A DNA stretch of 64,000 nt from an uncultured Gammaproteobacteria bacterium. GTDB lineage: Bacteria; Patescibacteriota; Microgenomatia; Levybacterales; GWA1-39-11. Where the stretch lies: the NCBI GenBank assembly GCA_964641355.1, contig CAZXND010000002.1:1005-65004 (forward strand), in the 5' to 3' direction. This document shows positions 30,784-50,407 of the stretch, piece after piece; position 1 is the first letter of the stretch; every line of letters begins with the position of its first letter. The notes under the pieces were generated by a model that was not told where the DNA came from, did no database searches, and saw only the letters and a program-made list of their open reading frames with translations. Made by a program: the position numbers and the translations under genes.

Positions 30784-30792
30784 CTAGTAAAA

Positions 30793-31143
30793 ATGAAAAA
30801 AAGAGAAATTAAAGAATTAGCAAAACTTTTGGTAGCAAATGATAAAATTGCACCAAAAACAGCTGAATACATTCTTAACAACCTAAGCAAAAAAGATCTT
30901 AAAGATCTACTCTTCTCCTTAAGAGTTGAAGGGCAAAAGAGAAGAGTTGTAATAAAAACAAGTGAGGAAATCGATGATAGCACCAAAATGCAACTTGAAG
31001 AAAGATTTGACGGGAGAGATATTGTTTGGGAGGAAGACGAAAATTTAGGCGGAGGAATTATCATAGAAGATGCAGATGATACAATGGATTTTAGCATGAG
31101 AAGTTTGATTAAAAAAACTGTTGATGAACTAAAAAGTAATTAA
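30793..31143 (+). CDS. atpH: F0F1 ATP synthase subunit delta (short, 116 aa)
   Basis: Operon position is between b and alpha. The C-terminal '[21 protein letters not shown]' resembles the delta C-terminal domain. The N-terminal domain is strongly reduced. Confidence 0.6.
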
Positions 31144-31153
31144 CATAATTAAA

Positions 31154-32662: not shown

Positions 32663-32664
32663 AT

Positions 32665-33516: not shown

Positions 33517-34920
<1,404 letters not shown>

Positions 34921-34937
34921 CTTTGTTCTGACGTTTT

Positions 34938-35363
34938 ATGGACAAAATTTTGGCAGTAGAAATATCATCCCCAGAAGGTATAATCTTACGAGATACTGCA
35001 AGTGAAGTAGTTGTTCCCACCGATCAAGGTGAAACTGTTATTCTTCCCCTGCACACTCCTATCTATATCCAACTTAGCGAAGGGGAAGTAATCGTTAAGT
35101 CGGAAAAACAAGAGACATCGATTGCAATTACTGGAGGATTTTTAGAAGTTGAAAACAATAAGGTAACAATTCTATCAGACTATGCAATAAAATCAGAAAA
35201 GATTGAAAGGATGAGAGCTGAAGAAGCAAAAATGAGAGCTGAAGAAGCAATGAGGAACAGAGCAGAAAATGAAAATATGTACGAGGCTGAAAAAGACATG
35301 CGAAGAGCACTTTTGGAGTTAAAAGTAGCAGATAAAATTCGGAAGAAGCAAAAAACAATGTAG
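34938..35363 (+). CDS. atpC: F0F1 ATP synthase subunit epsilon
   Basis: N-terminal beta-sandwich 'LAVEISSPEGIIL...VVVPTDQGE' followed by a C-terminal helical region with an internal RAEEA repeat. Confidence 0.85.
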   Translation: MDKILAVEISSPEGIILRDTASEVVVPTDQGETVILPLHTPIYIQLSEGEVIVKSEKQETSIAITGGFLEVENNKVTILSDYAIKSEKIERMRAEEAKMRAEEAMRNRAENENMYEAEKDMRRALLELKVADKIRKKQKTM

Positions 35364-35367
35364 CATT

Positions 35368-36066
35368 ATGCCATACTCAAGACTCTCAAGACGAATAGAG
35401 AATAAGAGTAAAAAACAAACCTATTTTTTTTTAGGTGGGATATTAATTATTGTTGTTTTTCTTTTCAAGTTTGGAGTCCCCACGCTCGAAATACTTACCA
35501 ACGCTTTATCTAGAAATAAAGGAAACAACTTAAGTGTTGCAGGTAAAGAATTTTTAGAACCACCTTCATTAATAATTCCCGAAGCTACAAATAGTGCAAT
35601 CTTGATTGTTAATGGAACAGCACCAGATGATAGTGGAGAAATTGAAATTTATGTTAACTCTAACCTTGAAAACACAATGACATTGGACCAAATGGGATTT
35701 AATATGAAGGTTTCTTTAAAAAACGGCGATAATTCTATTAAAGCAAGATACGTAAAGGGAGACAAAAAGAGTGAGTTTAGCGAAGAATACCACGTAAGCT
35801 TTGTTAAAGGAGAACCCAAGCTAGAAATATCTAATCCACGCGATGGAGATCATTTCACAAAAGCTGATCAGCAAATTTTAGTTAGTGGAATTACTGATTC
35901 AGAAAACACTGTAACTGTAAATGGTTTTGTTGCAATAGTAGATACTAGCGGAAACTTCACTTATAATCTAAATCTTTCCGAAGGAGATAACGATATAAAA
36001 ATAGCAGCAACAAATCCTGCAGGTAATACCACAACTAAAACTATGAAAGTTAATTATTCCAAATAA
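35368..36066 (+). CDS. hypothetical membrane-anchored protein with beta-sandwich (Ig-like) repeats
   Basis: N-terminal TM segment. Repeated 'NG..D.SG.F.Y.L.LSEG.N.I' segments are typical of bacterial Ig-like domains. Confidence 0.4.
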   Translation: MPYSRLSRRIENKSKKQTYFFLGGILIIVVFLFKFGVPTLEILTNALSRNKGNNLSVAGKEFLEPPSLIIPEATNSAILIVNGTAPDDSGEIEIYVNSNLENTMTLDQMGFNMKVSLKNGDNSIKARYVKGDKKSEFSEEYHVSFVKGEPKLEISNPRDGDHFTKADQQILVSGITDSENTVTVNGFVAIVDTSGNFTYNLNLSEGDNDIKIAATNPAGNTTTKTMKVNYSK

Positions 36067-37269
36067 TTAGCTTTTATGATCAACATTCTCACTCGTTAGC
36101 AAACCAGACAATAAAAAAAGGAAACATGCTATAAATGGAAAAAAAATTGTATTTTCAAATAAACCTTGCACCAAAACAGCAGTAATTACTCCCAAAAATA
36201 ACCCCCTTCTCTCTCTATCGATATCTTCAAATACAGAGGTAATAAAAATTCTAACAAAATTAAAAAATAGCAAAGTTCCAAAGATACCCGAGGTTGCCAA
36301 AAGAAAAATATAACTATTTGCAACTCCTGCACCAGCATTTGAGCTCTTCCACTTTTTATCCGTTAAAAAACCGTATTTATTTTGTGCATACCTAAAAGAA
36401 TTAAAACCTGATCCAATTAAAGGGCTTTTATTAAAGACCCTTAAACCAGTTTTATAACTCTCACCTCTTGCAACTATAGAGGCCGTTCTAAGAACATTAA
36501 CCCCTTCACTTTTCAAGTCGTGAGGAACAATAAGTATTCCAAGCAAAACTACTACTAGAAAGGGGACTAGTATTTTTTTTCTACCTAAGTATATTAAGTA
36601 AACAATTCCTGAAATGATTAAAGCAGTATATGATGACCTAGAATAAGTTAAAAATATAGAAATCAAAGTAAGAAAAATAGCAAATAAATAAAAGAATTTC
36701 AGTTTTTCCTTAAATTTATTTAATAAGTATAAAAATAAGAATAGGGATAAAATCAAGAATGATCCAGTAAAATTAGGATCAAAAAAAGTTGAGAATAGTC
36801 TATATAAGTGTTCATCCCATCCTAAATAAGTCAAAGGTCTAAGATCAGAAAAGAAAAAATATTGAGACATACCAATTAAGACAAAAATAAAAGTCGATAA
36901 TGACAAATAAAGTAGACACTTTTTTTTAAAAGAGGAATCTAAAAAATAAGAAACATAAAACACTGAAAATATTGCAATGTATCTTATAAGGTAAGATAGT
37001 GAAATAAGAAATGTAAGAATATTTAACTTAAGAAGATTAATATTTACTACTAAAGAGATAAGTGAAAATAAACAAAAAAATGCAAAAGCAATAGTAGTTT
37101 TTAAATAAGCTATCTTTTTTGTTTTATATGATATAAAAATCGAATATGCAAAAATTAGTCCAAGTAATACATCAAGAGGATAGATGTAAACTGAGTCCAT
37201 GGGGTTTATTCGTACGATAGCCCCCAAGGGAAGAATTACTAGCAATAAAAGTAAAAAAAGCTTTAGCAT
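36067..37269 (-). CDS. O-antigen ligase family (Wzy_C) membrane protein
   Basis: About 10 TM segments. 'YSRSSYTALI' and 'AGVANSYIFLLATSGIFGTLLF' match the Wzy_C loop/helix consensus (H-N-x-Y-L..E.GiiG). Confidence 0.6.
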   Translation of the reverse strand: MLKLFLLLLLVILPLGAIVRINPMDSVYIYPLDVLLGLIFAYSIFISYKTKKIAYLKTTIAFAFFCLFSLISLVVNINLLKLNILTFLISLSYLIRYIAIFSVFYVSYFLDSSFKKKCLLYLSLSTFIFVLIGMSQYFFFSDLRPLTYLGWDEHLYRLFSTFFDPNFTGSFLILSLFLFLYLLNKFKEKLKFFYLFAIFLTLISIFLTYSRSSYTALIISGIVYLIYLGRKKILVPFLVVVLLGILIVPHDLKSEGVNVLRTASIVARGESYKTGLRVFNKSPLIGSGFNSFRYAQNKYGFLTDKKWKSSNAGAGVANSYIFLLATSGIFGTLLFFNFVRIFITSVFEDIDRERRGLFLGVITAVLVQGLFENTIFFPFIACFLFLLSGLLTSENVDHKS

Positions 37270-38816
37270 TACCTTATTTGATACAGTTTAGCATGGGTAA
37301 GATCGTTTTCATATATCTTTTGGTAATTTTTTAATTCAGAAGGAAATGCATCGCCGATAGTGAGTATATAGTTGAACCTGTCTTTTCTATTTGCGAATGA
37401 CTCGTGGGTGAATGGAAAATCAACATAATATAGATTGTGACCACCGAAAATCAATACCTTTTGATCATGCGTCAATTTTTTAATTATTCCACCCTGATCT
37501 AAAAAGTCTCCAAATTCGAAGTTTAAGTGCTTTTCAAGAAAGTCTTCTTGAGTTTCCTTACCTAAAACAACAGGAATAAATTTCAAATTAGCGACAGACC
37601 TATACCCTATCGAAATTAGAGAACATACAATCACCAATAAAATTAGATACTTGCTTAGAAGTCTGTTCTTAATTTTACTGAATGTTAGAACACAAAGTAC
37701 AGAAAAAACAGGCAAATAAGGAAGAATAAATCTTCCGCCACCGGTTCTCGGAGTCAGATACCAAATGACTAGTGCGCAAAGTGAGTACAACAATAATAAT
37801 TTTTCCTCTTTGCTAAAACTTCTTAATAGGTAAAAAGTGAGCGGAATAAATATTATATATATTGGAGAAATTGGATCTGCTGCATTCAGAAATAACGTAT
37901 AGAGTTCCTTTGGTAAATCTTGCAAAGATATAACTGGGCTTACCTCATAAATCGAAGAGAAAAATGGGTAAAAGGGATTTCCGGTCGATAAAAATGAATA
38001 AACAAAATAAGGTAATGGTATTAATAAAGAGAAGAAAACGAATTGTAAACAATCTATGATAGTTATCCTTATTTTCTTGCCATTTTTGTAGAAGATTAAG
38101 ACTAAAAATATAAATATTGATCCTATCACAAGAACCTTTGTCGCTATGGCAAAACCTAATGAAATAGCTGCAAAAATTAGATATTTATCTTTTTTGCTTT
38201 TCGAATAAAGAATAAATGCATAAATAGCCAAGACCTCGTAAAGGCTTCTTCCTAGATCTACATACGCAGTAATCGTTTCCCATCCGACAACTAAATTCGA
38301 GTAAAAAATTAATACAGCAAGTAGAGCAGGAGTTTTAGAAACAAACTGACGCGAAAACTTATAAATGGCTAATAAACATAATATTCCAAGAAAAAAATGA
38401 ATAATTTTGGCACCTGCTGCACCTAGCATCAAAATCCCCGGAATATATAGATTTTCGACAAGTTTAGACATAACAGAATAATAGTAAACCCCACCGGGGA
38501 TAAAAAATATTTTGGATTCTTGAATAAATATTTTAGGAAGAGTTAGATGGTACCAAAGAGAATCAAAAGATATTTCAGGTCCCAATACTCCAATAAAGTT
38601 AATTGCAGTTTGTATCAATATCAATGCGAGAATAAAAAAATCTAACTTTGACCCTAGTCTAAATTTAAATCTTTCTTTTCTCGTAAAAAAAGTGATCACT
38701 AACAAAAAATAAAACGCCGAAACAACTATAATTTGCAAAGTCTTCAACCACCCAAAAAGACCTAAAAAGTAAATAATATAAGAGTAAATTCCGATTGAAA
38801 TTGGTAGTATAAACAT
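37269..38816 (-). CDS. polytopic membrane protein, putative GT-C glycosyltransferase
   Basis: 515 aa with more than 10 TM segments. The loop 'FDSLWYHLTLPKIFI' only weakly resembles the ArnT/PMT first loop. Confidence 0.4.
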   Translation of the reverse strand: MFILPISIGIYSYIIYFLGLFGWLKTLQIIVVSAFYFLLVITFFTRKERFKFRLGSKLDFFILALILIQTAINFIGVLGPEISFDSLWYHLTLPKIFIQESKIFFIPGGVYYYSVMSKLVENLYIPGILMLGAAGAKIIHFFLGILCLLAIYKFSRQFVSKTPALLAVLIFYSNLVVGWETITAYVDLGRSLYEVLAIYAFILYSKSKKDKYLIFAAISLGFAIATKVLVIGSIFIFLVLIFYKNGKKIRITIIDCLQFVFFSLLIPLPYFVYSFLSTGNPFYPFFSSIYEVSPVISLQDLPKELYTLFLNAADPISPIYIIFIPLTFYLLRSFSKEEKLLLLYSLCALVIWYLTPRTGGGRFILPYLPVFSVLCVLTFSKIKNRLLSKYLILLVIVCSLISIGYRSVANLKFIPVVLGKETQEDFLEKHLNFEFGDFLDQGGIIKKLTHDQKVLIFGGHNLYYVDFPFTHESFANRKDRFNYILTIGDAFPSELKNYQKIYENDLTHAKLYQIR

Positions 38817-40357
38817 TAAATATTAAGCTTAAATCTCTTACCCGTGCAGGTTTTTGCATAATAAATACTAACCGAACCTTCCCCATAAGGGTTCCTAAAT
38901 TCCTTTTCAAGTACAAAATATTTATCCAGTCCTACAAGCTCTCTATTTCGGGAGACGAAATAAACGGGAATATTAGTCTCAAAACAGTCATATTTTTCGA
39001 AAGGGACACTTTTCATTCTTGTATCTATGTAAAACACGCGAGTATTCGAATTCTTATTGAAGTAAACAATTACTGCGCTCTCCGGATTTCCTGTATTTAG
39101 ACCGATCCCTACTCCCAATCGCCCGCTCTTAGTTTTATCTTCAAGAGCCTTGATTGCCTGATTTGTCGCAAATCCTGATGTTCCAGAGCTTACATACTCT
39201 ACTCTTCCTAGGTCTCTTGATAAAAGATCCAAAATGTCGAAATATTTAACAGGGATAAATGTTTGGAGGATTGTAAAGCTCAAGGGAATTGAAAATAAGA
39301 TAAATCCAACAACCCATTCATTATATCTTTGCATAAGAGTAACAATCGCATAGGCTGGAAAAAGAGTCAACAAAGGAAGAAATGAAACCAAGTATCTAAC
39401 ATTTGCATTCCTAACTAGTAATATCTCAAGTAGTATTCCAGAAAAGATGAAAAATATAAGCAAGCTCTGTTTTTTTTTAAGAAGAACCAAACCATAGATA
39501 AGCGCAATAAACATTAGGGGAGTAAAGAAAATAAACAGAATCTCAAAGTTCTTGATTATATTTGTCACCCAAAACCAAATAGGAAAACGGAGAAGATCTG
39601 ATAATCCAAATGAATAACGGTTGTTTGTAGGCAATGTTTTCCAGAATAACGGTTGAATCAACAGGATAAAATCAATCGCTAAGAATGAAATTATCATAAT
39701 TAACAAATTATTAACTTTTATTTTTTTATTTTTTGTAGATAAATAGAAAAGCGATATTGCTGAAGAAAGGAAAAATATGAAAGCCGTTGATTTTATAAAA
39801 AATCCTATTCCCAAAACCAATCCTAGATAGACAAAATACTTTTTTTTCTCGCTTTGAAGTGCCTCGATAAAAAAGAAAAAAGACCAAATTCCAACTGCTC
39901 CAATCGAGGATTCCATTAATGCTTGCCTATCGTAGAATGAAAATATTGGGATGATTGAATATAGAATAAATGAAATTACACCCGTTTTTTTATCAAATAA
40001 TTTGCTTCCTACCTTATAAAGTCCAGTGGCGGCGGCAAACCCTACTACTACCGAGACAAGTCTTCCTGCAAAAAGTGGATCATAAAAAATCATTTCAGAA
40101 ATCCCAAACACCCACATTAAAAGTGGTTGCTTTGCATCATATAATGAATAAAATAAGAGTCCCGGTTCATGTAATTCACGCCACGCCCAATCAAGATATA
40201 TTGCTTCATCATTAAAAATGGGAAGAATGGTAATATTTACTAATCTCAAGCAGAAATAAAACACGCTTAACACAAACAGAGGGTGGTTTAGATACATTTT
40301 TAATTTATTCATAAACCATTTTTCCTTAGGAGATTTAGGAGATAAGTAAATAAACAA
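38816..40357 (-). CDS. ArnT/PMT_2-like (GT39/GT83) membrane glycosyltransferase
   Basis: First periplasmic loop 'NDEAIYLDWAWRE...KQPLLMW' matches the D-E-x-x-Y...K-P-P-L-x-Y-W pattern of ArnT-like enzymes. 513 aa, polytopic. Confidence 0.55.
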   Translation of the reverse strand: MFIYLSPKSPKEKWFMNKLKMYLNHPLFVLSVFYFCLRLVNITILPIFNDEAIYLDWAWRELHEPGLLFYSLYDAKQPLLMWVFGISEMIFYDPLFAGRLVSVVVGFAAATGLYKVGSKLFDKKTGVISFILYSIIPIFSFYDRQALMESSIGAVGIWSFFFFIEALQSEKKKYFVYLGLVLGIGFFIKSTAFIFFLSSAISLFYLSTKNKKIKVNNLLIMIISFLAIDFILLIQPLFWKTLPTNNRYSFGLSDLLRFPIWFWVTNIIKNFEILFIFFTPLMFIALIYGLVLLKKKQSLLIFFIFSGILLEILLVRNANVRYLVSFLPLLTLFPAYAIVTLMQRYNEWVVGFILFSIPLSFTILQTFIPVKYFDILDLLSRDLGRVEYVSSGTSGFATNQAIKALEDKTKSGRLGVGIGLNTGNPESAVIVYFNKNSNTRVFYIDTRMKSVPFEKYDCFETNIPVYFVSRNRELVGLDKYFVLEKEFRNPYGEGSVSIYYAKTCTGKRFKLNI

Positions 40358-40393
40358 AGTAAAGACCAGATAATAAAAATGATAACTATAAAT

Positions 40394-41158
40394 TTATCTT
40401 TCTTTATTTTCATTATTATAAATAAGATAAAGTTTTCCCCTTACAAGAAATGAATAGAGGCTCATAAACACAGACATAACGAATCCTTGAATTCCATCGA
40501 AAAATCCTAATTTAATAAAATAATTATAACTAAACTTTCCAATTGGAAAGGCAATTATTCCTAGCAGTCCTACCTTTATTCCTTGCTCATACAGTTCATT
40601 TGCTCTTAAAGTCGAATAATAATTAATCTCAGAAAGAAATTCACTAATTTGCGTATGTGAAGTGTGAAGAAGATCTCCTTGAATAAAAGCCACATTCTTT
40701 ATTTTCCAAATTTCATGAACCTTACCCGTCCATTCTCCTCTTCCCTTTCTCCCCAACCTTGTTAATCTAATATTTTTTGTTTCACCAAACTTTAGTTTTT
40801 TTCCACCAAAAATATCTACTCGCTTTATCTTGTATCCATCGTATTTTGAATCTGAATTAACAACTCTTCTAATATTTTCCTTCAGAGTAGAGCTTAATTC
40901 TTCATCTGCATCAAGGAATAAAATCCAATCTGTCTTGCATTTCTCAATGGCAAAGTTTCTTTGTGCAGAAAAATCATTATTGAGATCTCTCTCATATAAT
41001 TGAACCTTTTTTGATTTAAAGCTTTTTACTACTTCAACGGTATGATCTGAGGAATTATCATCAACTATAATTACATCTCCAAGATCTTTTACGCTTTCGA
41101 TACGATTAACTATGTTAGCTTCTTCGTTTTTTGTCAGAATAACAGTCGTTATATTCAT
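40394..41158 (-). CDS. glycosyltransferase family 2
   Basis: 'VILTKNEEANI', 'VIIVDDNSSDHT' and the 'FLDADEEL' DxD motif. Confidence 0.8.
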   Translation of the reverse strand: MNITTVILTKNEEANIVNRIESVKDLGDVIIVDDNSSDHTVEVVKSFKSKKVQLYERDLNNDFSAQRNFAIEKCKTDWILFLDADEELSSTLKENIRRVVNSDSKYDGYKIKRVDIFGGKKLKFGETKNIRLTRLGRKGRGEWTGKVHEIWKIKNVAFIQGDLLHTSHTQISEFLSEINYYSTLRANELYEQGIKVGLLGIIAFPIGKFSYNYFIKLGFFDGIQGFVMSVFMSLYSFLVRGKLYLIYNNENKER

Positions 41159-42525
41159 CTTTTTTGCCGATATAAATATATTTTACCGTCTTTCTCTTCA
41201 ATTACAAACTCCAAATCTGCTTTTTTAGATAAATTCCCACCTAAATACCACGTCAAATAATCATAGTTATTTGTAAAGCTTGAGAATTCACTTCCCTCAC
41301 CCTTTCCTTTAAGTAAAAAAGTTGAATTATTTGCAGATTTTATTATTTTTTTTGAAATTCGAAGTCTATCTTTATAAAAGTTTTGATTAGTGCCTGAAAA
41401 ATAATTACTCGAGAGTAAGGAATAAATATTAACCGAAGAAATAATTAACGCGATGAATATTCCTAAATGTTTTTTTTTGATTGAATCAAGAAAAAGAGCT
41501 AATGAAATAATAACTATAGGAAAAAATATTGGCAAATATGCATCTGATGGCGTTTTGTTTATAGTAAACGCAATAAGCGGAATAAATATTGTGATAAACA
41601 ATGTTAAATCTTTTATGTTCTTCCTTTTTTTATAAATATAAAGTAAAGAGAACATTGAAGACAAAAACAAAAAAAGAGAAATTGGTAAGCTCAGAGGAAA
41701 TATTGTTTTTTTTAAAAAAAGTGAAAAAAAAGTCAGGAAATCAATCATAAAGTTACTAGAACTCCCTCCGAAGATCAATGATCTTAAGGGAGAAATAAAA
41801 ACCCATGCAGCGAATTTTAAGGTCTGATTGAATCCATGTGAAAAATCATAAATTATTACCGGAATTAAAGGAAAAACGAAGCAGGCAATACTACTTACAA
41901 ATAATTTCTTATTCATGTGACTTTTAATATACTTAAAATTTATAAAAACCACCGATGCAAAAACAAGCCAAAGAACTTGAGTTGCAAGCTCAAAGTTATA
42001 TAAGATCGAAAGAAATAAGATAACTAGTGGCACCGATTCAATTTTTTTCAAAGAAACTTTCACAAGAAAATAAAAGAACAAGAGAGTGAATAAGGGAATT
42101 AGACTCGTATGATACGGCATTCGAGATGAGAGAATTATATAAGGAGAGAAGGCATAAAGGATTGACGAAAAAATTGCCACTTTCTGAGAGTACAATTTTA
42201 GACTTATATAGTAAACCAAGACAACACAAATGGCGTCAAGAAAAGCAGAAAAGTAACCAGGGGCAAGTGGGTTAAATCCAAATAACGTAAAAATAACACT
42301 CAAAATATAGGTCCAAAATGGACCTTGATGAACCCAAACATGACTCGATGCAATTCCCACAAGAGGAATAGATTTTTCTAAAATAAAACTCCGCGCTGAT
42401 AAGTAAAACCATCCCTGATCTCCAATAAAATACATCAAGTCATTAATTTTATATATTCTCAAAAGAAATGAGGTGAAGAAAATCAATAAAATAAAAATAA
42501 CGGAGACTTTTTTCTTGGATATCAT
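41155..42525 (-). CDS. ArnT/PMT_2-like (GT83) membrane glycosyltransferase
   Basis: 'GDQGWFYLSARSFILEKSIPLVGIASSHVWVHQGPFWTYIL' aligns to the ArnT loop 'DE.RYAEIAREML.SGDWLVP.LNGEPYFEKPPLFYWL'. 456 aa, polytopic. Confidence 0.6.
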   Translation of the reverse strand: MISKKKVSVIFILLIFFTSFLLRIYKINDLMYFIGDQGWFYLSARSFILEKSIPLVGIASSHVWVHQGPFWTYILSVIFTLFGFNPLAPGYFSAFLDAICVVLVYYISLKLYSQKVAIFSSILYAFSPYIILSSRMPYHTSLIPLFTLLFFYFLVKVSLKKIESVPLVILFLSILYNFELATQVLWLVFASVVFINFKYIKSHMNKKLFVSSIACFVFPLIPVIIYDFSHGFNQTLKFAAWVFISPLRSLIFGGSSSNFMIDFLTFFSLFLKKTIFPLSLPISLFLFLSSMFSLLYIYKKRKNIKDLTLFITIFIPLIAFTINKTPSDAYLPIFFPIVIISLALFLDSIKKKHLGIFIALIISSVNIYSLLSSNYFSGTNQNFYKDRLRISKKIIKSANNSTFLLKGKGEGSEFSSFTNNYDYLTWYLGGNLSKKADLEFVIEEKDGKIYLYRQKR

Positions 42526-43373
42526 TGGAACATTTCGGGACGTACTATCTTCAAAATATTTTTTTCAACTTTCAGCAGTAGGAAAAGTAAAAATCCTAAA
42601 GTGCCGCTTCCATTCTTCTTATAATAATAAAGCAAGTCATTATAGTAAATATCAAGCTTTTTCCAACCAAGTTTTTTAACACTTGCAGAAACAGTATGAA
42701 TAACTTTCGCATTCCCAAGATGTAGAATTCTATACCCTTTCTTCTTTATTCTGAGACAGAGATCGTTTTCTGTATAATAAAGCAAGAATTTAGAGTCATA
42801 CCCACCAATCTCTCTTAATATTTTCGTTCTAACCATCAAAAATGCGTCACTAGTAACGTCGACATCAAAATCAAAAAGCCTATTCTGTCTTATGTATTTA
42901 TATTTATTAATCAATTTCTTATTTTTTAATCTTTTTCCCAAAATAGATAATTCGTAAAAATCAATCAGTGGAGTTGTAAATTTAGAACCAGTGCTTATTA
43001 TTTTTCCTTCTTCATAAATCTCTAATCCACCAATCGCGCCGATACTACTCTCTTTATCTAACCTATCTACCATCTTCTTTACTGAATTATCTGTAAAATA
43101 TGTATCAGAGTTTAATATTAAAAAATACCTCCCAGAAGCCTTACTCAGAACTTCGTTGTGTGCCTTAGTAAAAAAAAGATTTTTTTTGTTCTCGATTAGT
43201 TTTATTTGTTTAAAATTACTTTTAACCATCTTTACAGATCCATCGCTAGAAGCATTATCAACTACAATAATTTCAAATGCCACGTTTTTGGTGTGTTTAT
43301 AAATAGAGTCAAGACATCTTTTGAGAAGTTCACAAGTGTTGTACGAAACTATAGAAATAGTTACATCAATCAT
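42522..43373 (-). CDS. glycosyltransferase family 2
   Basis: 'SIVSYNTCELLKRCLDSI', 'IIVVDNASSDGS' and 'LNSDT' DxD-like motif. Confidence 0.8.
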   Translation of the reverse strand: MIDVTISIVSYNTCELLKRCLDSIYKHTKNVAFEIIVVDNASSDGSVKMVKSNFKQIKLIENKKNLFFTKAHNEVLSKASGRYFLILNSDTYFTDNSVKKMVDRLDKESSIGAIGGLEIYEEGKIISTGSKFTTPLIDFYELSILGKRLKNKKLINKYKYIRQNRLFDFDVDVTSDAFLMVRTKILREIGGYDSKFLLYYTENDLCLRIKKKGYRILHLGNAKVIHTVSASVKKLGWKKLDIYYNDLLYYYKKNGSGTLGFLLFLLLKVEKNILKIVRPEMFQ

Positions 43374-44020
43374 TTTGGGTAAGCTTTTATAACCATTTGA
43401 TAGGCAAAAAGATTTGGGAAAAATCTAGATAAGAATTTACTTATCCTAGGATATCCACCACCTACGCTGTCGATCATAAATACATCCATCTTGTATCCAT
43501 TTTTTTCGAAAAGATCTTTAAATGTTTCGGTAGTAAAAAAGTGAAGATGTGTATTATCCAAAATTCCATATTCCTGATACTCAAATTTTCCAAATAACAA
43601 ATTTTTTCTGATCGACCAGTGAGAGATATTGGGAGTAGTTACTATTAAAAAGCCGTCCTTTTTTAATAAACTTCTCCACTTTCTTACCGCCTCAAATGGA
43701 TCTCTTAAGTGTTCTATAAGAGCTGAGGCTAGTATTACATCAAATTTTCCCTTTACACTTTTAATAGTTTTTAAAGTCTCTACGTCCCCTTCAATAACTG
43801 AATCTAGTTTTTTTCTTGCTACTCGAGCTTCATCTTTAGACATTTCAATTCCAACTACGATACATTTTTTATTTTTTTTAAGATATTCACCCATAAATCC
43901 AGTAGCACAACCAATATCAAGAACTCTCGTATTTTCTGGTATTAAAGACGTAGAAAGCCTATCGATACTATTTGGATCAAGTATTTCAGGCTTAAATTTT
44001 ATATTTTTACCGTACTTCAT
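43370..44020 (-). CDS. class I SAM-dependent methyltransferase
   Basis: 'VLDIGCATGFMGEYL' motif I and 'FDVILASALIEH'. Confidence 0.75.
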   Translation of the reverse strand: MKYGKNIKFKPEILDPNSIDRLSTSLIPENTRVLDIGCATGFMGEYLKKNKKCIVVGIEMSKDEARVARKKLDSVIEGDVETLKTIKSVKGKFDVILASALIEHLRDPFEAVRKWRSLLKKDGFLIVTTPNISHWSIRKNLLFGKFEYQEYGILDNTHLHFFTTETFKDLFEKNGYKMDVFMIDSVGGGYPRISKFLSRFFPNLFAYQMVIKAYPK

Positions 44021-44023
44021 TGT

Positions 44024-45838
44024 CTAAGGTTTTTTAAATATTCCGATCATCTCAGGTTCATTTCTAAAAACATTTTCTTTATGAGTCTTACTGTATAATA
44101 GTTTAAAACCTGCTCGAGTGAGCAGGGAGTCCATAAATTTTCTATTTGGAATATTTACCCAATGACTTCTTCTAACATCTTTTGCTGGCATTGGAATCGC
44201 AAAAAATAATAGCCCTCCTCGTTTTAAGAGATTGTAACAATTATTCAAAGCAAGAGACAAATCATACATGTGTTCAAAAACATGGAAAGAAAGAATTATG
44301 TCATAGCTATTTTGTTTTAATTTTTGATCCATAAAGTGAATATCGAGTTCTTTAATGTTTTTTCTTTTTGAAAATTCAAGAGCATCATTTCCGATCTCAA
44401 TCCCAGAAATTAAATTTGAGTAATTTTTCTTAAAAAAGTCATAGCTGAAAAATTCACGACATCCTACGTCTAGTATTTTCGCCTTTTTAAAATCAATCTG
44501 TTTGTCATATTTTTTTGTAAAAAAATTCAAATACCTCACAACTGCAGTTTCTATAACTTCCGGAACAAGTGCAAGGGAGTCGCTTTTTTGATCAGCAATG
44601 TATTGTTTATAATCCAGTTCTAAAATTACCTCTAAAAGACTTTTGCCATTTAAATCTAAATTAAAGTATTTCTGTACCTTGTCTCGACTTCTTTTTATAA
44701 ATCTCTCCCTCCTACTGGGATTTACAATAAGCTCTCCCAACTTTTGTGAAATCTTTTTCTCATTAAGAGACCGAAGCAGCACTCCTTCATCATTGTTTAT
44801 TAAGGAGCGTACACCGGAAATATTTGAAGCAATTATTGCCGTGCCAAAAAACATTCCCTCAACGATCACATTTGGTTGACCTTCGTAGCCTTTTTTATTA
44901 GAGTTGGGATATGGCATGAATAGAACCGAAGCATGTAGGTACTTATTAAAAAGTTCTCTACCATAAAGCCCCGTTATTACTGAAACATTTTTTTCAAGTT
45001 TATTTTCAACTATTATTTCCCTTAACTCTTTCAAGTATTCACTATCAATATCAGGCCCAATAATCTCATACTTCCACTTTTCTTTAATATTTTTAGGTAG
45101 TAGTGAAAAAGCCCTAATTCCCAACTCAAAATTTTTTTCCCTGACTACTCTCCCTACTGAAATAATTAAATTTTCTTTACTTTTTTGCTTTTTTTTAAGA
45201 GATTCTTCTACTACTTTATAGTCATTAACGGGAATGCTATTTGGACAATATAGCGCATAAGATGTGATTTTTTTTAATCTGTTAGTAGTATTTCTTTTTT
45301 CCGATAAAATTAATTGAGAATTAAAAAGTAACGTATCATACAAATAAAAACCTTTGATGCTTGGTACAAAAGATAATAAGTTAATTAATAGGTGAATTTT
45401 TGAGTAGAAACTTTTGGGCGTAAGCCTTAGAAAACTTGTAGCGCCAAAGAATAATTTCCCGAAAGATGAAATACTATCATCTGAATCTAATTTCAGCAAA
45501 GTGAGTACATTGTTTTTGTCAGCTAAATCATTAACGAATTTAGAATATGGTCTACCTCTATAGAGAATGACTGCAAAATATTTATCAATGTTTTTTCTGA
45601 GATAGTCTCTAAAACCAGTGTTATCAAGCTGTGGCCAAGAAGAATTGGCTCCAATTCGCACTATTTCTATTCCAGACGTTTGAAATGACAAATCGATGTT
45701 CTTTTTAAGCCTCGCAGTAATAAATTCTACACTAATATCATTTTTTGCAAATAATTGAGCTAAAAGCCCAATGTTCTTATTGATAGATGTCTTATCTAAA
45801 TCGTCAAATATAATAGCCAATTTTCGCTGTGGTTTCAT
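44024..45838 (-). CDS. glycosyltransferase family 4 fused to a C-terminal SAM-dependent methyltransferase domain
   Basis: N-terminal and central GT4 region 'EGQPNVIVEGMFFGTAIIASNISG'. C-terminal 'ILDVGCREFF...YDIILSFHVFEHMYD...LLKRGGLLFF' is a Methyltransf_11-type domain. Confidence 0.7.
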   Translation of the reverse strand: MKPQRKLAIIFDDLDKTSINKNIGLLAQLFAKNDISVEFITARLKKNIDLSFQTSGIEIVRIGANSSWPQLDNTGFRDYLRKNIDKYFAVILYRGRPYSKFVNDLADKNNVLTLLKLDSDDSISSFGKLFFGATSFLRLTPKSFYSKIHLLINLLSFVPSIKGFYLYDTLLFNSQLILSEKRNTTNRLKKITSYALYCPNSIPVNDYKVVEESLKKKQKSKENLIISVGRVVREKNFELGIRAFSLLPKNIKEKWKYEIIGPDIDSEYLKELREIIVENKLEKNVSVITGLYGRELFNKYLHASVLFMPYPNSNKKGYEGQPNVIVEGMFFGTAIIASNISGVRSLINNDEGVLLRSLNEKKISQKLGELIVNPSRRERFIKRSRDKVQKYFNLDLNGKSLLEVILELDYKQYIADQKSDSLALVPEVIETAVVRYLNFFTKKYDKQIDFKKAKILDVGCREFFSYDFFKKNYSNLISGIEIGNDALEFSKRKNIKELDIHFMDQKLKQNSYDIILSFHVFEHMYDLSLALNNCYNLLKRGGLLFFAIPMPAKDVRRSHWVNIPNRKFMDSLLTRAGFKLLYSKTHKENVFRNEPEMIGIFKKP

Positions 45839-45846
45839 TATAAAGT

Positions 45847-47100
45847 TTAGGATTTTTTGTTAATAAAATACAATACAAATGAGAAAAAGCAAAGAAATAT
45901 CACTACTTGAGTTGCAATAGTAGCATAAACGGCCCCTAAAATTTGAAACTTTAAAATAAAAATGATGTTCAAAAGGATATTTAATAAAGCTCCCAGAACT
46001 GATATGTATAGATAAATTTTTTGCTTTCCTAATATTATTAGAACTTTATACAAAAGCGCAGACAAAGAAAGAAAAGGAACAAAAAATATTAGTATACGAA
46101 GTATTGGTATAGCCATGTCATATTTTGCTCCGAATATTAACGGAATTATTACCGGTGAAAAGATAGAAATAAAAATTGTTGTTGGAAAACTCCAAAAACC
46201 AATAGCAATACACGATTTATAAACTGCATTTCTAAATCTTCTTTTATCTTCTATGCCTATTCTCGATAAAGCAGGGTAAACAGCCATAACGAAAGGTACA
46301 TTCAAGAGTTGAATAAGAGAGAATGCAAATGGGCTAGCTGCATTAAAAATTCCTACACTTTTATCTCCCAGCATTCTTCCTAAAATTACAGAGTCAATAT
46401 TTGTATATACAAGAGAAGCAAATGCGGCCATTCCAAGAGGTAATCCCTCAAAAATAAAATACTTTGCTAATTTTTTATCAAATTCTACCTTTGGTAAATC
46501 GTATCTGGCCAAAGATATCCAAGACACGATAACACTCAAGATCGTGCCTACCAGCATTCCCCAAAAAATACCAGGCAGACCCAGTCCTAAATTAAATAAG
46601 ATAAAAGCGCAAAGAAGGAGAAGAATCGTATTAACGGAATTTAAAATTGCTGCAACTCCCATCCTCTCAGTACCTTCAAAGAAAAAAATTGGAGCAGTGC
46701 GAGCAATAGAAAAAAAGAGAGTTAATGAGGCAACAAATATCAAAAAGTCTGTATCTTTATCTGGAATCACCAATCCTCTAACAACAAATACAATTAAAAC
46801 CGTAATAAGCGCAAATAATTGGTTTATTACTAATGAATTTCCTAGATAAATGGTTGCCTTTTTTTTATTTTTTGCAATCTCACGAATTACAATAAGCCCT
46901 ATTCCAAGATCTGGTAAAAAGGCGAAAATACCAATGAACGAATTTACTAAATTATATTTTCCGTATTCCTCAACGCTTAAAGAATGTGCTAAAAAAACAA
47001 CCCAAATAACCCCGATAAACTTTAAAAAAATTTCTGAGAATGCAAGGAATATAGTATTCTTAAAAACGAGACCAAAATTATTACGTTGAAAAAAATGCAT
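45847..47100 (-). CDS. polysaccharide biosynthesis protein / oligosaccharide flippase (Wzx-like, MOP superfamily)
   Basis: 417 aa with 12 predicted TM segments. The N-terminal 'FLKFIGVIWVVFLAHSLSVEEYGKYNLVNSFIGIF' is typical of the PST family. Confidence 0.65.
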   Translation of the reverse strand: MHFFQRNNFGLVFKNTIFLAFSEIFLKFIGVIWVVFLAHSLSVEEYGKYNLVNSFIGIFAFLPDLGIGLIVIREIAKNKKKATIYLGNSLVINQLFALITVLIVFVVRGLVIPDKDTDFLIFVASLTLFFSIARTAPIFFFEGTERMGVAAILNSVNTILLLLCAFILFNLGLGLPGIFWGMLVGTILSVIVSWISLARYDLPKVEFDKKLAKYFIFEGLPLGMAAFASLVYTNIDSVILGRMLGDKSVGIFNAASPFAFSLIQLLNVPFVMAVYPALSRIGIEDKRRFRNAVYKSCIAIGFWSFPTTIFISIFSPVIIPLIFGAKYDMAIPILRILIFFVPFLSLSALLYKVLIILGKQKIYLYISVLGALLNILLNIIFILKFQILGAVYATIATQVVIFLCFFSFVLYFINKKS

Positions 47101-47105
47101 AAACT

Positions 47106-48227
47106 TCAGATCTTAAACTTATTCACCTTTTCAACTATGTATTCTTGATCTTTTTCGGATAAATCTGGAAAAATAGGAAGAAGAAGTATTTCCTTCCATA
47201 CTCTTTCAGTTACAGGTACGTCTGCCCTATAATCAGAATAAAGTTTGTAATGGTTTGTTGGTTCATAATGAACACTTGTTGCTATTCCATTATGTGCTAG
47301 ATAGTCAGAAAGTCTATCTCTTATTTTTGAAGAAACCTTAATTACATAATTATGATGGGAACTCTGAGCATAATTTTTTACAACAGGGGTTTCTATCCAT
47401 GAAGTTTTAGCAAACAACTTGTTATAAATCTCAAAAACTTTCTTCCTTTTTTCATTGTTTTTTTTAAGCTTAGCTAGTTGAACGAGTCCAATTGCGGCAG
47501 AAATATCATTCATTTGATATTTGTAGCCAGTTGTTACAACATTATACCTCCATTTAAGCTTTTTTGACTTTGATCGTGCCCAAGTACTTTGAGATATCCC
47601 AGACCATGCGAGAATACGCGAATCATCAATAGTTTTTTTATTTCTTCCAACCAACATTCCTCCATCACCTGTGGTTAAATTTTTAATGGCAGCAAAAGAA
47701 AAAGTAGCAAGATCACCAAAACTACCTACATGTTTGTTTTTATAATACGACCCTGTTGCATGGGCACAATCCTCAATAAGCGTTATTTTTTTATCACGAC
47801 ATAACTTAATAAGAGGAGAGAGATCAACAGGATGTCCTCCATAATGAACAACGATTATTACTTTTGTCTTTTTGGTTATTTTTCTTCCTATATCATTTAC
47901 ATCTGCACATAAATTATCTCTATCCACGTCGCAAAAAACAGGGGTGGCTCCCACCATCAGAATCGGATGGTTTGTTGCTACAAAAGTTAACGCGGGAGTA
48001 ATAACTTCATCACCAGGTGCAAGGTTACATGCAAGAAGTGCAAGGTGAAGAGCTGCAGTAGCAGAGTTTGTTGCAAGAACATTTTTTGCACCAATAAATT
48101 TCGTGAATTTTTTCTCAAACTCAAGCGTTTTAGGTCCCTGACCAATCCAATTTGATTTAATTACTTCACCAACAGCATTTATTTCATCCTCACCCATGCT
48201 TGGCTTAAACACTGGAATCATCATCAA
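47106..48227 (-). CDS. DegT/DnrJ/EryC1/StrS family PLP-dependent sugar aminotransferase
   Basis: 'PGDEVITPALTFVATNHPI' and the PLP-Lys region 'SFAAIKNLTTGDGG'. Confidence 0.85.
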   Translation of the reverse strand: MMMIPVFKPSMGEDEINAVGEVIKSNWIGQGPKTLEFEKKFTKFIGAKNVLATNSATAALHLALLACNLAPGDEVITPALTFVATNHPILMVGATPVFCDVDRDNLCADVNDIGRKITKKTKVIIVVHYGGHPVDLSPLIKLCRDKKITLIEDCAHATGSYYKNKHVGSFGDLATFSFAAIKNLTTGDGGMLVGRNKKTIDDSRILAWSGISQSTWARSKSKKLKWRYNVVTTGYKYQMNDISAAIGLVQLAKLKKNNEKRKKVFEIYNKLFAKTSWIETPVVKNYAQSSHHNYVIKVSSKIRDRLSDYLAHNGIATSVHYEPTNHYKLYSDYRADVPVTERVWKEILLLPIFPDLSEKDQEYIVEKVNKFKI

Positions 48228-48238
48228 GATTATATCAT

Positions 48239-49153
48239 CTAAAATCTTTTTATGAGAGCGTAAGTTGTGCCTAAAAGAACTGCAAAATCAGAGGTAATTT
48301 GAATCATGGGTAAATAGAGAATAGATAATATATTTTTTACAAACTTGAAATTTTTTATATATATCCATAACAGGTAAACAAAGACATATGTCAACAGAAG
48401 AGATCCGAAAAACAATTTCTCTTTGAAAAATAAAAAGAAGGTAATCAAGAAAATAAAATATCTAATAAATATGAGAAACACCTTAGGCCTAAAAATATTA
48501 GCATAAACATCACCTACGGCAAAATTAAAAAACATCAAAAACGATTCGACTATGTTTTTTCTCGGTACCCAACCAACAATTGCTCTTTTGGATACTGCTA
48601 TCCTAACTCCTGCTTTCTTCATCTTTCTTGCAAAATAGTAATCCTCACTATAGTTAAGTTTTTCCGGAAATCCTCCCAATAACTCAAATGTTTCTCTTCT
48701 TATTGCCATCGAACGAGAAGAAGGCAAAAATCCGTCTTTTGGATTGGAGACCAAAACATAAGGAGTAAGACAGGCTTCAAAAGTTGTCTCTGGTAACCCT
48801 TTATAAAAACCAGCTACGACCTTTATTTTCTTATCTTTTAAAGGGCTGGTGATTTCTCTTAACCAATTACGATCAAGGATACAACCAGCATCAGAAATTG
48901 CAATCACGCTACCTGTAGATTCATAAATAGCCTTATTTCTACCAATTGATCTATTTCCCTTAACCCTAAGCAATTTAAACGAAACACCTTTTGGGGACTT
49001 GAACTTTTTAAGCAATTTCCAAGTTCCATCAGTAGAATCAGCATCTGTAATTACTATTTCATTTGGAAGCTTTGATTGAGAGATAACGGATTCAAGAAAC
49101 GGGATAAGTGTATTTCTTTCATTATAAACAGTAGCTATAAAACTAACTTTCAT
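48239..49153 (-). CDS. glycosyltransferase family 2 with C-terminal TM segments
   Basis: 'VSFIATVYNERNTL', 'IVITDADSTDGT' and 'ISDAGC'. Confidence 0.75.
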   Translation of the reverse strand: MKVSFIATVYNERNTLIPFLESVISQSKLPNEIVITDADSTDGTWKLLKKFKSPKGVSFKLLRVKGNRSIGRNKAIYESTGSVIAISDAGCILDRNWLREITSPLKDKKIKVVAGFYKGLPETTFEACLTPYVLVSNPKDGFLPSSRSMAIRRETFELLGGFPEKLNYSEDYYFARKMKKAGVRIAVSKRAIVGWVPRKNIVESFLMFFNFAVGDVYANIFRPKVFLIFIRYFIFLITFFLFFKEKLFFGSLLLTYVFVYLLWIYIKNFKFVKNILSILYLPMIQITSDFAVLLGTTYALIKRF

Positions 49154-50267
49154 TCACTTCTACCTTCCACAATTTTAAATAACTTTTAACAAGTGATCCC
49201 CAAGTTTGCTTTTTTGCCCAATGATATCCCAAATCTGACTTCTCATCAAAACTATTAGGGTTATAACGTAGTAATTTATTTAAAAGTTCGCTCGGGGAAT
49301 TTGATACATCAATAAAACCATTAAAAGGTGAACTCAAGAGATAGTCTTTTCTTACAGGATCACTGTATAAAGAAAATATTCTTTTTTTACATATTAGAGC
49401 CTCTAGCATAGATAAATAAGACGAAGAAAAAACAAGATTTGAGTTATTGAGTAATTTTTTTAATCTTTCTCTTTGAGTAATAACATTACCCACAATTTTA
49501 GCTTTTTTCTTCATAGATCCGTCACCGAACAGATTGAATATAATTTTTACTCTCTTTTTACGAAGTTTTCTTATAACCTTGATGTAACTTGACAACGAAT
49601 TTATCTCTTCAAGTCTACCTATAAAAAGTATGTTTAGTGAACTCGTACTTTTCACGGTTTTTTTAACATTACTAGTTTTTAATTCTGACTCTTCAACTCC
49701 TCCATATGTCGTGAGATCTGATTTTACTCCATACCATTTTTCCAGATATCTTCCGACATTTATCGATCCGTCTGATAATAAATGAGACACTTTTCTCACA
49801 ATTTTTGACTTAAAAGATATAGGATATCCTTCATATCCATGAGAAGTTAAGTAAAACTTCTTAGAGAAGAGAATAATTCTAAGTGGCCAAACCCAAATAA
49901 ACACATCATGAACATGTATGACATCATAATTTTTTATTACGTTTATCATAACTAGCAACTTATACCATATAACAAACTTTTTGAAGAATCCGTCACTACC
50001 AAATTCAAGGTAAATTAGCTTTATGTTTTCGTTTTTTTTTCGCATAAAAAAGCTTGATTTGACGGCCTTTTTTTTTACTTTAGCTTCGCTAGCACTCAAT
50101 GAGCTTGTCTGATAAGCATCTTGGATTAATATTTCGTTTGTCCTTGAGCTTTCTGTAAGGATTGTTACTTCGTGTTGTCTTGCAAGTATTTTTGAAATTT
50201 CCAATACATGTCGTTCAACTCCACCCCTATTTAAGGTTATATTAGGTGTAATAAACAAAATCTTCAT
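49143..50267 (-). CDS. glycosyltransferase family 4 (group 1)
   Basis: 'MKILFITPNITLNRGGVERHVLEIS' GT4 N-terminal domain. Confidence 0.75.
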   Translation of the reverse strand: MKILFITPNITLNRGGVERHVLEISKILARQHEVTILTESSRTNEILIQDAYQTSSLSASEAKVKKKAVKSSFFMRKKNENIKLIYLEFGSDGFFKKFVIWYKLLVMINVIKNYDVIHVHDVFIWVWPLRIILFSKKFYLTSHGYEGYPISFKSKIVRKVSHLLSDGSINVGRYLEKWYGVKSDLTTYGGVEESELKTSNVKKTVKSTSSLNILFIGRLEEINSLSSYIKVIRKLRKKRVKIIFNLFGDGSMKKKAKIVGNVITQRERLKKLLNNSNLVFSSSYLSMLEALICKKRIFSLYSDPVRKDYLLSSPFNGFIDVSNSPSELLNKLLRYNPNSFDEKSDLGYHWAKKQTWGSLVKSYLKLWKVEVNES

Positions 50268-50333
50268 TTTTATTGCTATAGGCTTCTATTTTTCCGAAAT
50301 AAACTATACATAAATATAGCTTGTCATCTCTTG

Positions 50334-50407
50334 TGGACTTGGAGGGACTCGAACCCCCGACCTCTTCGATGTGAACGAAGCGCTCTAACCAACTGAGCTA
50401 CAAATCC
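50334..50407 (-). tRNA. tRNA-Val (anticodon CAC)
   Basis: Acceptor GGATTTG/CAAGTCC, D arm GCTC-AGTTGGTTA-GAGC, anticodon stem CTTCG/CGAAG with loop TTCACAT, T loop TTCGAGT, discriminator A. CCA is not encoded. Confidence 0.85.

Follow-up and report, generated by a model that had tools for sequence, protein, structure and literature searches.

The rfb locus of Escherichia coli lies between galF and gnd and the pneumococcal cps locus between dexB and aliA, and the initiator of E. coli O-antigen synthesis, wecA, is encoded away from the locus. Surface structures are expected to mediate host attachment and phage exposure. In lake bacterioplankton, surface-glycan genes have been described as generally hypervariable (bioRxiv 10.1101/2022.03.23.485478). 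In the Lactococcus polysaccharide pellicle (PSP) system, WpsA-J, a family 2 glycosyltransferase (GT2) acts on undecaprenyl monophosphate, cytoplasmic glycosyltransferases elongate the product, a Wzx-type protein exports it and a GT-C-fold membrane glycosyltransferase completes the transfer outside (PMC10821137). We have analysed a 64-kb stretch of contig CAZXND010000002.1 (hereafter the window) from a Levybacterium belonging to the candidate phyla radiation (CPR; Patescibacteria), in which 14.2 of the 64 kb examined are devoted to a predicted surface-glycan operon situated between the atp operon and a tRNA-Val(cac) gene. Little seems to have been written on the cell surface of CPR/Patescibacteria, and nothing specific to their glycan loci was found in the searchable literature. 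We conclude that the locus is probably a vertically inherited, internally variable surface-glycan operon of Levybacteria, held in a fixed slot between the atp operon and tRNA-Val/lepB/parB.

A glycan-gene slot in Levybacteria

In the open reading frame (ORF) list of the window, positions 36067-50267 form an uninterrupted run of 12 minus-strand protein ORFs, all co-directional (Table 1). A first-pass annotation, made from the DNA letters alone, had described consecutive minus-strand genes between the atp operon and tRNA-Val(CAC), many with overlapping starts and stops, and both descriptions are confirmed; its count of thirteen genes is not, as 12 protein genes are found and its own list sums to 12. 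By the ORF coordinates, 6 of the 11 gene junctions overlap, by 1-11 nt, and the remainder are gaps of 3-36 nt. With this many overlaps and no gap longer than 36 nt, the run looks like one operon. A promoter scan, which returned fewer promoter-like sites than shuffled sequence, and a terminator count at chance level were both uninformative. Pfam assigned all 12 ORFs to glycan-synthesis families and upheld every family call of the earlier annotation, though two of the three PMT_2 matches, those of GT-C1 and GT-C3, are barely over the cut-off but stronger in homologues; NCBIfam gave no equivalog-level name for any of the 12 operon proteins. The left flank (29309-36066) consists of the atp operon and the gene for a 232-residue protein, p232; on the right, tRNA-Val(cac) is followed by lepB, parB, the genes for ribosomal proteins L27 and L21, ftsW and ileS.

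Comparison with relatives was based on 80 loci in species-representative genomes found via ParB. Those with informative titles are mostly labelled Levybacteria/Levyibacteriota, Microgenomates or Patescibacteria group, and many loci with other titles match the labelled Levybacteria loci in gene order. Slot counts refer to the 59 loci having at least 3 kb beyond lepB and tRNA counts to the 60 loci scanned. The order ileS-ftsW-L21-L27-parB-lepB is kept in the relatives' loci, tRNA-Val(cac) lies beside lepB in 43 of 60, and in 13 relatives a homologue of the family 4 glycosyltransferase (GT4) begins less than 100 nt downstream of tRNA-Val on the same strand. A search for the gene set in relatives, as proposed in the first-pass annotation, locates homologues of the island families at the same site in 53 of the 59 loci. 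The GT4 homologue, present in 47, is the most conserved element at the tRNA/lepB end.

Conservation is concentrated at the two slot ends, one held by GT4 and GT2c and the other by GT2a, Wzy_C and p232, with the middle shuffled. The four loci that span the entire slot (L039, L061, L066 and L069) all close with GT2a, Wzy_C, p232 and atpC, as the window does, and in 14 loci GT2a lies directly upstream of Wzy_C or GT-C genes, making it a conserved element of the atp end. In the window the p232 gene, carried on the atp strand, begins 5 nt past atpC and meets the Wzy_C gene tail to tail with zero spacer. Its place between atpC and Wzy_C is kept in every relative that covers the site and was recorded in the same four and in L085, L087 and L088. 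A tRNA-Thr(cgt) gene occurs between p232 and atpC in L061 (20084-20159), L066 (10411-10483) and L069 (11025-11098), and none is present there in the window. The other ORFs at the site in relatives belong mostly to sugar or glycan families. The commonest extra gene encodes a PTPS_related GT-C-like membrane protein (32 copies); others encode GT2 and GT4 enzymes, many methyltransferases, additional Wzx flippases, NAD epimerases/dehydratases including the PglF/CapD type, a GFO/IDH/MocA oxidoreductase, acetyltransferases, a carbamoyltransferase and UDP-galactopyranose mutase (GLF). Non-glycan families at the site include Peptidase_C39-like membrane proteins, thiamine pyrophosphate enzymes and, in two relatives, sortases. 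Filled mostly by glycan families across relatives, the slot is thus a glycan locus of the whole lineage, conserved at its ends and variable between them.

The degree of divergence within the slot could be compared with that of its flanks in the collinear loci. On L085, a metagenome contig of 125 kb, the flanks agree with those of the window and 11 of the 12 operon genes recur with 35-57% identity. Their order is nearly that of the window, with the Wzx and DegT genes exchanged and two sugar-nucleotide genes inserted. The closest relatives found are L087 and L088, in which atpD is 88-91%, atpC 73-74% and p232 69-70% identical to those of the window, and in both the right half of the operon (methyltransferase-GT2b-GT-C3-GT2a-GT-C2-GT-C1-Wzy_C) is collinear with the window at 50-73% identity. 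Set against the identity of the flanks, these values indicate that island divergence tracks flank divergence. GT4 identity likewise rises with flank identity (rho 0.52, p=1.7e-4, 47 loci). The stand-alone methyltransferase is 56-69% identical in L042, L085, L086, L087 and L088. The fusion of a GT4 to a methyltransferase is very rare: only four full-length homologues of 46-100% identity were found in 5.8 billion protein clusters, three of which, at 46-55%, are other than the window protein, and the three homologues for which context was recovered all lie in the same Levybacteria slot. Origin of this fusion by merger of the adjacent glycosyltransferase and methyltransferase genes of L087/L088 was considered and rejected, the glycosyltransferase domains being without similarity. 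The variable gene content within the slot points to cassette exchange among relatives.

Table 1. Genes of the operon in order from the tRNA end, with the tRNA-Val and p232 genes that flank it
Feature	Coordinates	Strand	Product	Evidence
tRNA-Val(CAC)	50333..50407	-	tRNA, 66 nt upstream of first operon gene, same strand	ARAGORN; Rfam 70.3 bits
Gene 1, GT4	49143..50267	-	GT4, 374 aa, soluble	Pfam Glyco_transf_4 1.5e-9
Gene 2, GT2c	48239..49153	-	GT2, 304 aa, C-terminal membrane segment	Pfam GT2 + GT21
Gene 3, DegT	47106..48227	-	DegT/PseC/ArnB-class pyridoxal-phosphate sugar aminotransferase, 373 aa	Pfam DegT 3.1e-113, 379 bits
Gene 4, Wzx	45847..47100	-	Wzx-type MOP (multidrug/oligosaccharidyl-lipid/polysaccharide) flippase, 417 aa, ~12 transmembrane segments	Pfam Polysacc_synt 5e-41, MatE
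Gene 5, GT4-methyltransferase	44024..45838	-	GT4-S-adenosylmethionine (SAM) methyltransferase fusion, 604 aa	Pfam Glycos_transf_1 residues 214-386, Methyltransf_11 456-546
Gene 6, methyltransferase	43370..44020	-	Stand-alone SAM methyltransferase, 216 aa	Pfam Methyltransf_23 5e-22
Gene 7, GT2b	42522..43373	-	GT2, 283 aa	Pfam GT2 2.3e-25
Gene 8, GT-C3	41155..42525	-	GT-C, 456 aa	Pfam PMT_2 27.1 bits (cut-off 26.1)
Gene 9, GT2a	40394..41158	-	GT2, 254 aa, soluble	Pfam GT2 6.5e-22
Gene 10, GT-C2	38816..40357	-	GT-C, 513 aa from TTG	Pfam PMT_2 5.8e-17, 62.8 bits
Gene 11, GT-C1	37269..38816	-	GT-C, 515 aa, divergent PMT_2-type	Pfam PMT_2 29.3 bits (cut-off 26.1)
Gene 12, Wzy_C	36067..37269	-	Wzy_C-domain membrane protein, 400 aa	Pfam Wzy_C 6.9e-17, 62 bits
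p232	35368..36066	+	Beta-sandwich protein, membrane-anchored, 232 aa	Pfam Glucodextran_B 6e-19

Composition and the question of import

The first-pass annotation had taken the locus for a horizontally acquired island, visibly AT-rich and adjacent to a tRNA gene. Comparison of the operon with the remaining genes of the window (n=46 other genes) upholds the first of these attributes in part. GC content is lower, 0.313 versus 0.355, but the whole deficit resides in codon positions 1 and 2 (GC1 0.374 versus 0.464, GC2 0.307 versus 0.340, operon versus rest), and an equally low value (at most 0.331) is observed in 13 of the 46 other genes, including murT, murG and genes for GT-C-like membrane proteins. 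At the third position GC is equal (GC3 0.257 in the operon, 0.260 in the rest), the synonymous codon fractions of operon and rest correlate with r=0.986, and the codon distance of 0.0305 compares with a null of 0.0279 ± 0.0049 from random 12-gene sets (p=0.27). By the kind of GC and codon-usage comparison that the annotation had proposed, the operon thus cannot be told from its surroundings in the window, either in GC3 or in its choice among synonymous codons. The proteins themselves differ, F+I+L+Y amounting to 36.5% of residues in the operon versus 27.5% and D+E to 7.9% versus 12.3%, and operon proteins are poor in A and G as well as in E and D. The lower GC of the operon reflects this amino-acid content, a bias that membrane proteins and accessory enzymes under weak constraint would be expected to show. 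Outside the operon, GC is as low in three further genes for membrane proteins of GT-C-like or glycan type, namely those for a PTPS_related/PMT_2 protein (4287-5900) and a membrane protein with C-terminal tetratricopeptide repeats (5935-7605), and an ORF of 342 aa (1027-2055) that is very hydrophobic and has no family.

Recent insertion of a foreign, AT-rich glycan cluster at the 3' end of the tRNA-Val gene would be in keeping with the lower overall GC, the position of the operon immediately 3' of the tRNA gene, a dinucleotide signature at the upper end for the window and a gene content strongly unlike that of the nearest relatives. We nevertheless judge it very improbable. GC3 and synonymous codon use are native, no integrase, transposase or recombinase family was matched among the 12 ORFs in Pfam or NCBIfam, and the 22-nt 3' half of tRNA-Val occurs only once in the window with up to 3 mismatches allowed, leaving no att-like repeat of the tRNA end; a repeat search across the window returned only AT-rich chance repeats. 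The adjacency of tRNA-Val and lepB and the junction from tRNA to GT4 are kept across relatives, glycan genes hold the slot in most of them, as counted above, none of the genomes available being a same-genus one with an empty site, and identity to the collinear loci rises with that of the flanks. The first-pass annotation had named an even composition, joined with synteny kept throughout the lineage, as the mark of a core locus as opposed to an island; both are found here, and the import reading fails. The tRNA-Val gene has adjoined lepB ancestrally and is no integration site: to call the locus variable is right, to call it imported via the tRNA is wrong. For genome scanning, the lesson is that low GC beside a tRNA cannot be taken as a sign of import where the genes concerned are for membrane and accessory proteins, and that GC3, codon usage and synteny are to be examined before import is called.

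Vertical inheritance within a fixed slot, the reading we prefer, also has observations that weigh against it. In L087/L088, the closest relatives, other genes take the place of the operon's left half, which implies some exchange between lineages, and GT2c identity is uncorrelated with flank identity. The composition tests cover 64 kb of the genome. The dinucleotide signature of the operon is high, 43.4 x 10^-3 versus a mean of 28.8 and ranking third among 50 windows. It is outscored by a housekeeping block (17-31 kb) at 46.5, so that this signature follows amino-acid content and is not diagnostic.

Enzymes and a proposed pathway

The first-pass annotation had predicted a lipid-linked, methylated, amino-sugar glycan that is flipped and then transferred by GT-C enzymes. 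With Wzx as the flippase and with Wzy_C and GT-C enzymes finishing the glycan outside, this prediction has the support that sequence and predicted structure can give. In the pathway we propose, the GT4, the GT4-methyltransferase fusion and the soluble GT2s would assemble a lipid-phosphate-linked oligosaccharide at the cytoplasmic face of the membrane, DegT would aminate one sugar and the two methyltransferase domains would methylate sugars. The Wzx-type flippase would carry the intermediate across the membrane, where the WaaL-fold Wzy_C protein may move the glycan en bloc to a conserved envelope acceptor, perhaps a glycopolymer of the wall or the membrane, perhaps a surface protein. The three GT-Cs would append single sugars outside from polyprenyl-phosphate-sugar donors, presumably supplied by partner GT2s, of which GT2b with GT-C3 is the clearest pair and membrane-anchored GT2c the second candidate. 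Initiation would depend either on an enzyme encoded elsewhere in the genome or on GT2c acting on undecaprenyl monophosphate like Lactococcus WpsA. We infer the order of steps, the role of GT2s as donor synthases, the ligase activity of Wzy_C and the identity of sugars and acceptor.

Wzy_C had no sequence match to solved chains, either as a single sequence or as a profile, and because sequence searches of solved structures failed, a fold search on predicted models was needed. Its AlphaFold model (mean predicted local distance difference test score, pLDDT, 92.3) has the O-antigen ligase WaaL, 7TPG, as best fold match (E 9.5e-7, template-modelling (TM) score 0.61, 14% identity), followed by SEDS proteins. 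Across 64 sequences of the family 25 columns are invariant, among them W151, D152, H154, R157, R211, R261 and R268; the invariant motif is GWDEHLYRLFSTFLDPNF, and conserved Arg and His residues are located in outer loops. Judged by eye in the family alignment, the position of the canonical WaaL H-N looks variable. Wzy_C is fixed at the slot boundary while glycosyltransferase content varies, a pattern that fits an acceptor-specific ligase or oligosaccharyltransferase with relaxed donor specificity and not a repeat-unit-specific polymerase. Transfer of the flipped glycan en bloc to a conserved acceptor is thus the activity we would assign to it, a polymerase role being less likely. Its neighbour p232 has one N-terminal transmembrane helix and an NCBIfam Ca_tandemer match below the cut-off; speculatively, it may be a surface protein or the glycan acceptor.

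The three GT-Cs are mutually at most 21% identical. GT-C2, for which searching solved structures by sequence returned only spurious matches to G-protein-coupled receptors, gave an AlphaFold model (pLDDT 91.8) with fold matches to ALG12, ArnT (TM scores 0.58-0.61 for ArnT), the oligosaccharyltransferases OST/PglB/AglB, ALG9, Pmt4 and Emb, and its homologues are labelled GT39/PMT-like by their sources. The first outer loop holds invariant acidic residues in each enzyme: N-D-E after the first transmembrane helix (TM1) of GT-C2 (60 sequences), D36 after TM1 of GT-C3 (50 sequences), and E81 and D85 in GT-C1 (5 sequences). The start of GT-C2 is ambiguous between TTG 40357 (513 aa) and ATG 40297 (493 aa); public gene calls of identical sequence start at ATG 40297 and homologues align from about there. 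Judging by family membership and by their fusions to GT2 domains, the GT-Cs would use polyprenyl-phosphate-linked sugar donors.

Coupling of GT2 and GT-C proteins is most evident for GT2b, whose stop overlaps the start of GT-C3 by 4 nt. Fused GT2-GT-C ORFs of 737-870 aa occur in 8 relatives, a GT2b-type domain being joined to PMT_2 in L011, L022, L038 and L046 and a GT2c-type domain to PMT_2/PMT in L021, L024, L072 and L076. An exhaustive search for the GT-C3 family yielded 2666 representatives at E<1e-3, and fusions were counted on the best 150; 62 of these 150 are at least 680 aa long, and 60 of the 62 bear an N-terminal GT2b-like domain. Single-polypeptide fusions of 700-880 aa include P0250-P0394, and P0275 is 59% identical to the GT2b of the window. 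GT2b and GT-C3 are the split halves of a protein that many relatives encode as a single GT2-GT-C chain, and no description of such fusions was found in the searchable literature. The order within the fusions is topologically sensible, with the cytoplasmic GT2 first, then the first GT-C helix, and the catalytic loop outside the membrane. Split and fused forms together suggest coupled "charge-and-transfer" modules, in which GT2b would make the polyprenyl-phosphate sugar used by GT-C3 and GT2c may serve another GT-C, while fusion as such proves only a shared pathway. A wider proposal, possible but doubtful in our estimation, is that a widespread, uncharacterised bifunctional family of CPR enzymes charges polyprenyl phosphate with a sugar inside and transfers the sugar to a surface glycan outside, and that GT2b with GT-C3, and probably GT2c together with some other GT-C, are its split form; the slot would then be the Levybacteria equivalent of an O-antigen locus, whose cassette turnover would tune phage and host-cell recognition in bacteria that are presumably host-dependent.

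The remaining enzymes would act on the cytoplasmic side. GT4, which gave only a weak WlaC match in a sequence search of solved structures, is the likely cytoplasmic glycosyltransferase acting on a lipid-linked intermediate. GT2c has hydrophobic segments at residues 220-293, with invariant polar residues K267, N268, Q285 and D289 in the membrane region. It matches lipid-acceptor GT2 families, namely GT21 ceramide glucosyltransferase and HpnI, and is a candidate lipid-phosphate (polyprenyl-phosphate) glycosyltransferase, either as initiator or as sugar-donor synthase. With its profile, TarS and TarP were matched better than the dolichyl-phosphate mannose synthase DPMS (1e-7), GtrB (5e-5) or ArnC (1.6e-4). 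The best solved relatives of GT2a are GmaR (6.8e-16) and SunS, in the N-terminal, nucleotide-binding half only, and the DPMS match of GT2a and GT2b is weak or absent. Membership of the GT2s in the GtrB/DPMS/ArnC group was thus considered and is unsupported by sequence. DegT scores 329 bits with NCBIfam PseC and 325 bits with ArnB, both below cut-off (631 for ArnB), and is predicted to make an amino sugar from a nucleoside-diphosphate (NDP)-keto-sugar. The Arn pathway, suggested by the location of DegT beside a membrane GT2 and the GT-Cs, was rejected, as no ArnA is present in the window and DegT is below the ArnB cut-off; the dehydrogenase and short-chain dehydrogenase/reductase (SDR) encoded next to the operon genes in L085 are TviB/GalE-like, the SDR matching ArnA at only 68 bits. 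Wzx has approximately 12 hydrophobic segments and supplies the MOP flippase of a Wzx/Wzy pathway, and no chain-length regulator (Wzz, polysaccharide co-polymerase) family was matched within the window.

Some results count against the pathway as proposed. Within the window there is no dehydratase or oxidase that would form the keto-sugar for DegT and no phosphoglycosyltransferase (PF00953, PF02397), the latter leaving initiation unexplained; nor is a phosphoglycosyltransferase among the 25 commonest families at the relatives' site. PSP-type logic, with a GT2 acting on undecaprenyl monophosphate, would explain its absence. In addition, no GT2 is specifically DPMS-, GtrB- or ArnC-like, TarS, chondroitin synthase, SunS and GmaR matching better, so that the donor-synthase role rests on fusion and adjacency alone.

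Protein O-glycosylation would give the glycan a different destination, Wzy_C being an O-oligosaccharyltransferase (akin to PglL, or to WsfB from S-layer glycosylation in Gram-positive bacteria), the GT-Cs PMT-like protein O-glycosyltransferases, and the targets surface proteins such as an S-layer protein, pilins or p232. The Wzy_C domain is common to O-oligosaccharyltransferases and ligases and the fold is WaaL-like, yet to our knowledge lipopolysaccharide is not expected as an acceptor in a CPR lineage. The GT39/PMT-like names of GT-C2 homologues agree with this, whereas the GT-C2 fold is nearer to ArnT and ALG12, which have lipid or glycan acceptors, than to Pmt1/2/4; similarly, the protein and peptide glycosyltransferases GmaR and SunS are the best solved relatives of GT2a, but the likeness is confined to its nucleotide-binding half. 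Wzy_C invariably has beside it a beta-sandwich protein with a membrane anchor, and sortase genes are present at the site in two relatives, while no acceptor protein has been identified and the data do not separate protein from glycopolymer acceptors. On balance we hold protein O-glycosylation to be unlikely, though with an appreciable chance of being correct.

A lipoglycan built without undecaprenyl diphosphate, of the mycobacterial lipomannan/lipoarabinomannan (LM/LAM) or glycolipid-anchored type, seems improbable to us. Here GT4 and GT2c would glycosylate a membrane lipid on the cytoplasmic side, Wzx would flip it, the GT-Cs would extend it outside with polyprenyl-phosphate sugars, and the part played by Wzy_C would be small or of another kind. 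That the window has no phosphoglycosyltransferase would then be accounted for, the GT21 ceramide glucosyltransferase and HpnI matches of GT2c and its conserved membrane domain would be in accord, and GT4 and GT2c do form a conserved pair at the slot start. The three GT-C genes recall the logic of PimE, Mpt and Emb, and Emb and PimE are among the fold matches, but these are weaker than ArnT and ALG12. One of the best-conserved members of the slot is a WaaL-fold protein, and the known members of this fold use diphosphate-linked donors. We retain the ligase-terminated, lipid-linked pathway of a vertically inherited operon as the probable one. The sampled relatives keep a dedicated, diversifying slot for surface-glycan genes, and the outcome is a concrete gene set with candidate coupled GT2/GT-C modules for biochemical study.

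Other genes of the window and related systems

Elsewhere in the window, the minus strand between ileS and ftsZ encodes a YcaO cyclodehydratase (57001-58533) and, at 58533-59519, a SagB-like dehydrogenase of the nitroreductase family. Just downstream of this pair, a 54-aa ORF (56772-56936) contains the Cys/Ser/Gly-rich stretch CSSSSEGSSSNGTG, and the region 56772-59519 looks like a small thiazole/oxazole-modified peptide (TOMM) cluster. Neither YcaO nor the SagB-like dehydrogenase has a counterpart in the loci of any of the 80 relatives, making this region a better candidate for an inserted element than anything else in the window. The isoleucyl-tRNA synthetase (IleRS, 53794-56688) has syntenic copies in L001-L080 that form two classes, 54-68% and 31-37% identical to that of the window. 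The classes do not follow ParB or flank similarity, which suggests in-place replacement between two IleRS types within Levybacteria. At 19935-22103, a MurT/GatD-like pair, a Mur ligase with a MurT_C domain and a CobB/CobQ-type amidotransferase, suggests amidation of the peptidoglycan stem peptide in this CPR bacterium.

Compared with described systems, the locus resembles O-antigen and capsule loci in its conserved flanks and end genes, its shuffled glycosyltransferase and sugar-modification content and its lower overall GC, and in those loci the initiating transferase may likewise be encoded elsewhere, as with wecA in E. coli. It differs in belonging to a small-genome CPR bacterium, in being bounded by atp and tRNA-Val/lepB, in having three GT-Cs and a ligase-like Wzy_C inside the cluster, and in having neither a chain-length regulator nor, in this copy, nucleotide-sugar synthesis genes. 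The Lactococcus PSP (WpsA-J) and streptococcal GacI/J/K/L systems share the logic of a GT2, cytoplasmic glycosyltransferases, a Wzx-type step and a GT-C. In contrast to them, no small activator of the WpsB/GacJ type was identified here, GT2c is not demonstrably a WpsA/GacI homologue, and a WaaL-fold protein is present together with three GT-Cs, not one or two.

GtrA/B/C, ArnC/ArnT and CsbB/YfhO are alike in pairing a GT2 with a GT-C, and the fold of GT-C2 is ArnT-like; the DegT gene adjoins that of a membrane-anchored GT2 here, as arnB adjoins arnC. Unlike the Arn and Gtr systems, however, the operon has no ArnA-like enzyme and no small flippase of the GtrA type, and its GT2s match ArnC, GtrB and DPMS weakly. 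Wzy_C shares with the WaaL, PglL/WsfB and Wzy superfamily its Pfam domain, WaaL 7TPG as best fold and the outer-loop Arg and His residues, but identity to WaaL in the fold alignment is low and no solved chain is matched by sequence. The locus is ordinary in kind, and its most original feature, which sets it apart from GtrA/B/C, ArnC/ArnT and CsbB/YfhO, is the split/fusion family in which GT2 and GT-C form a single polypeptide in many relatives.

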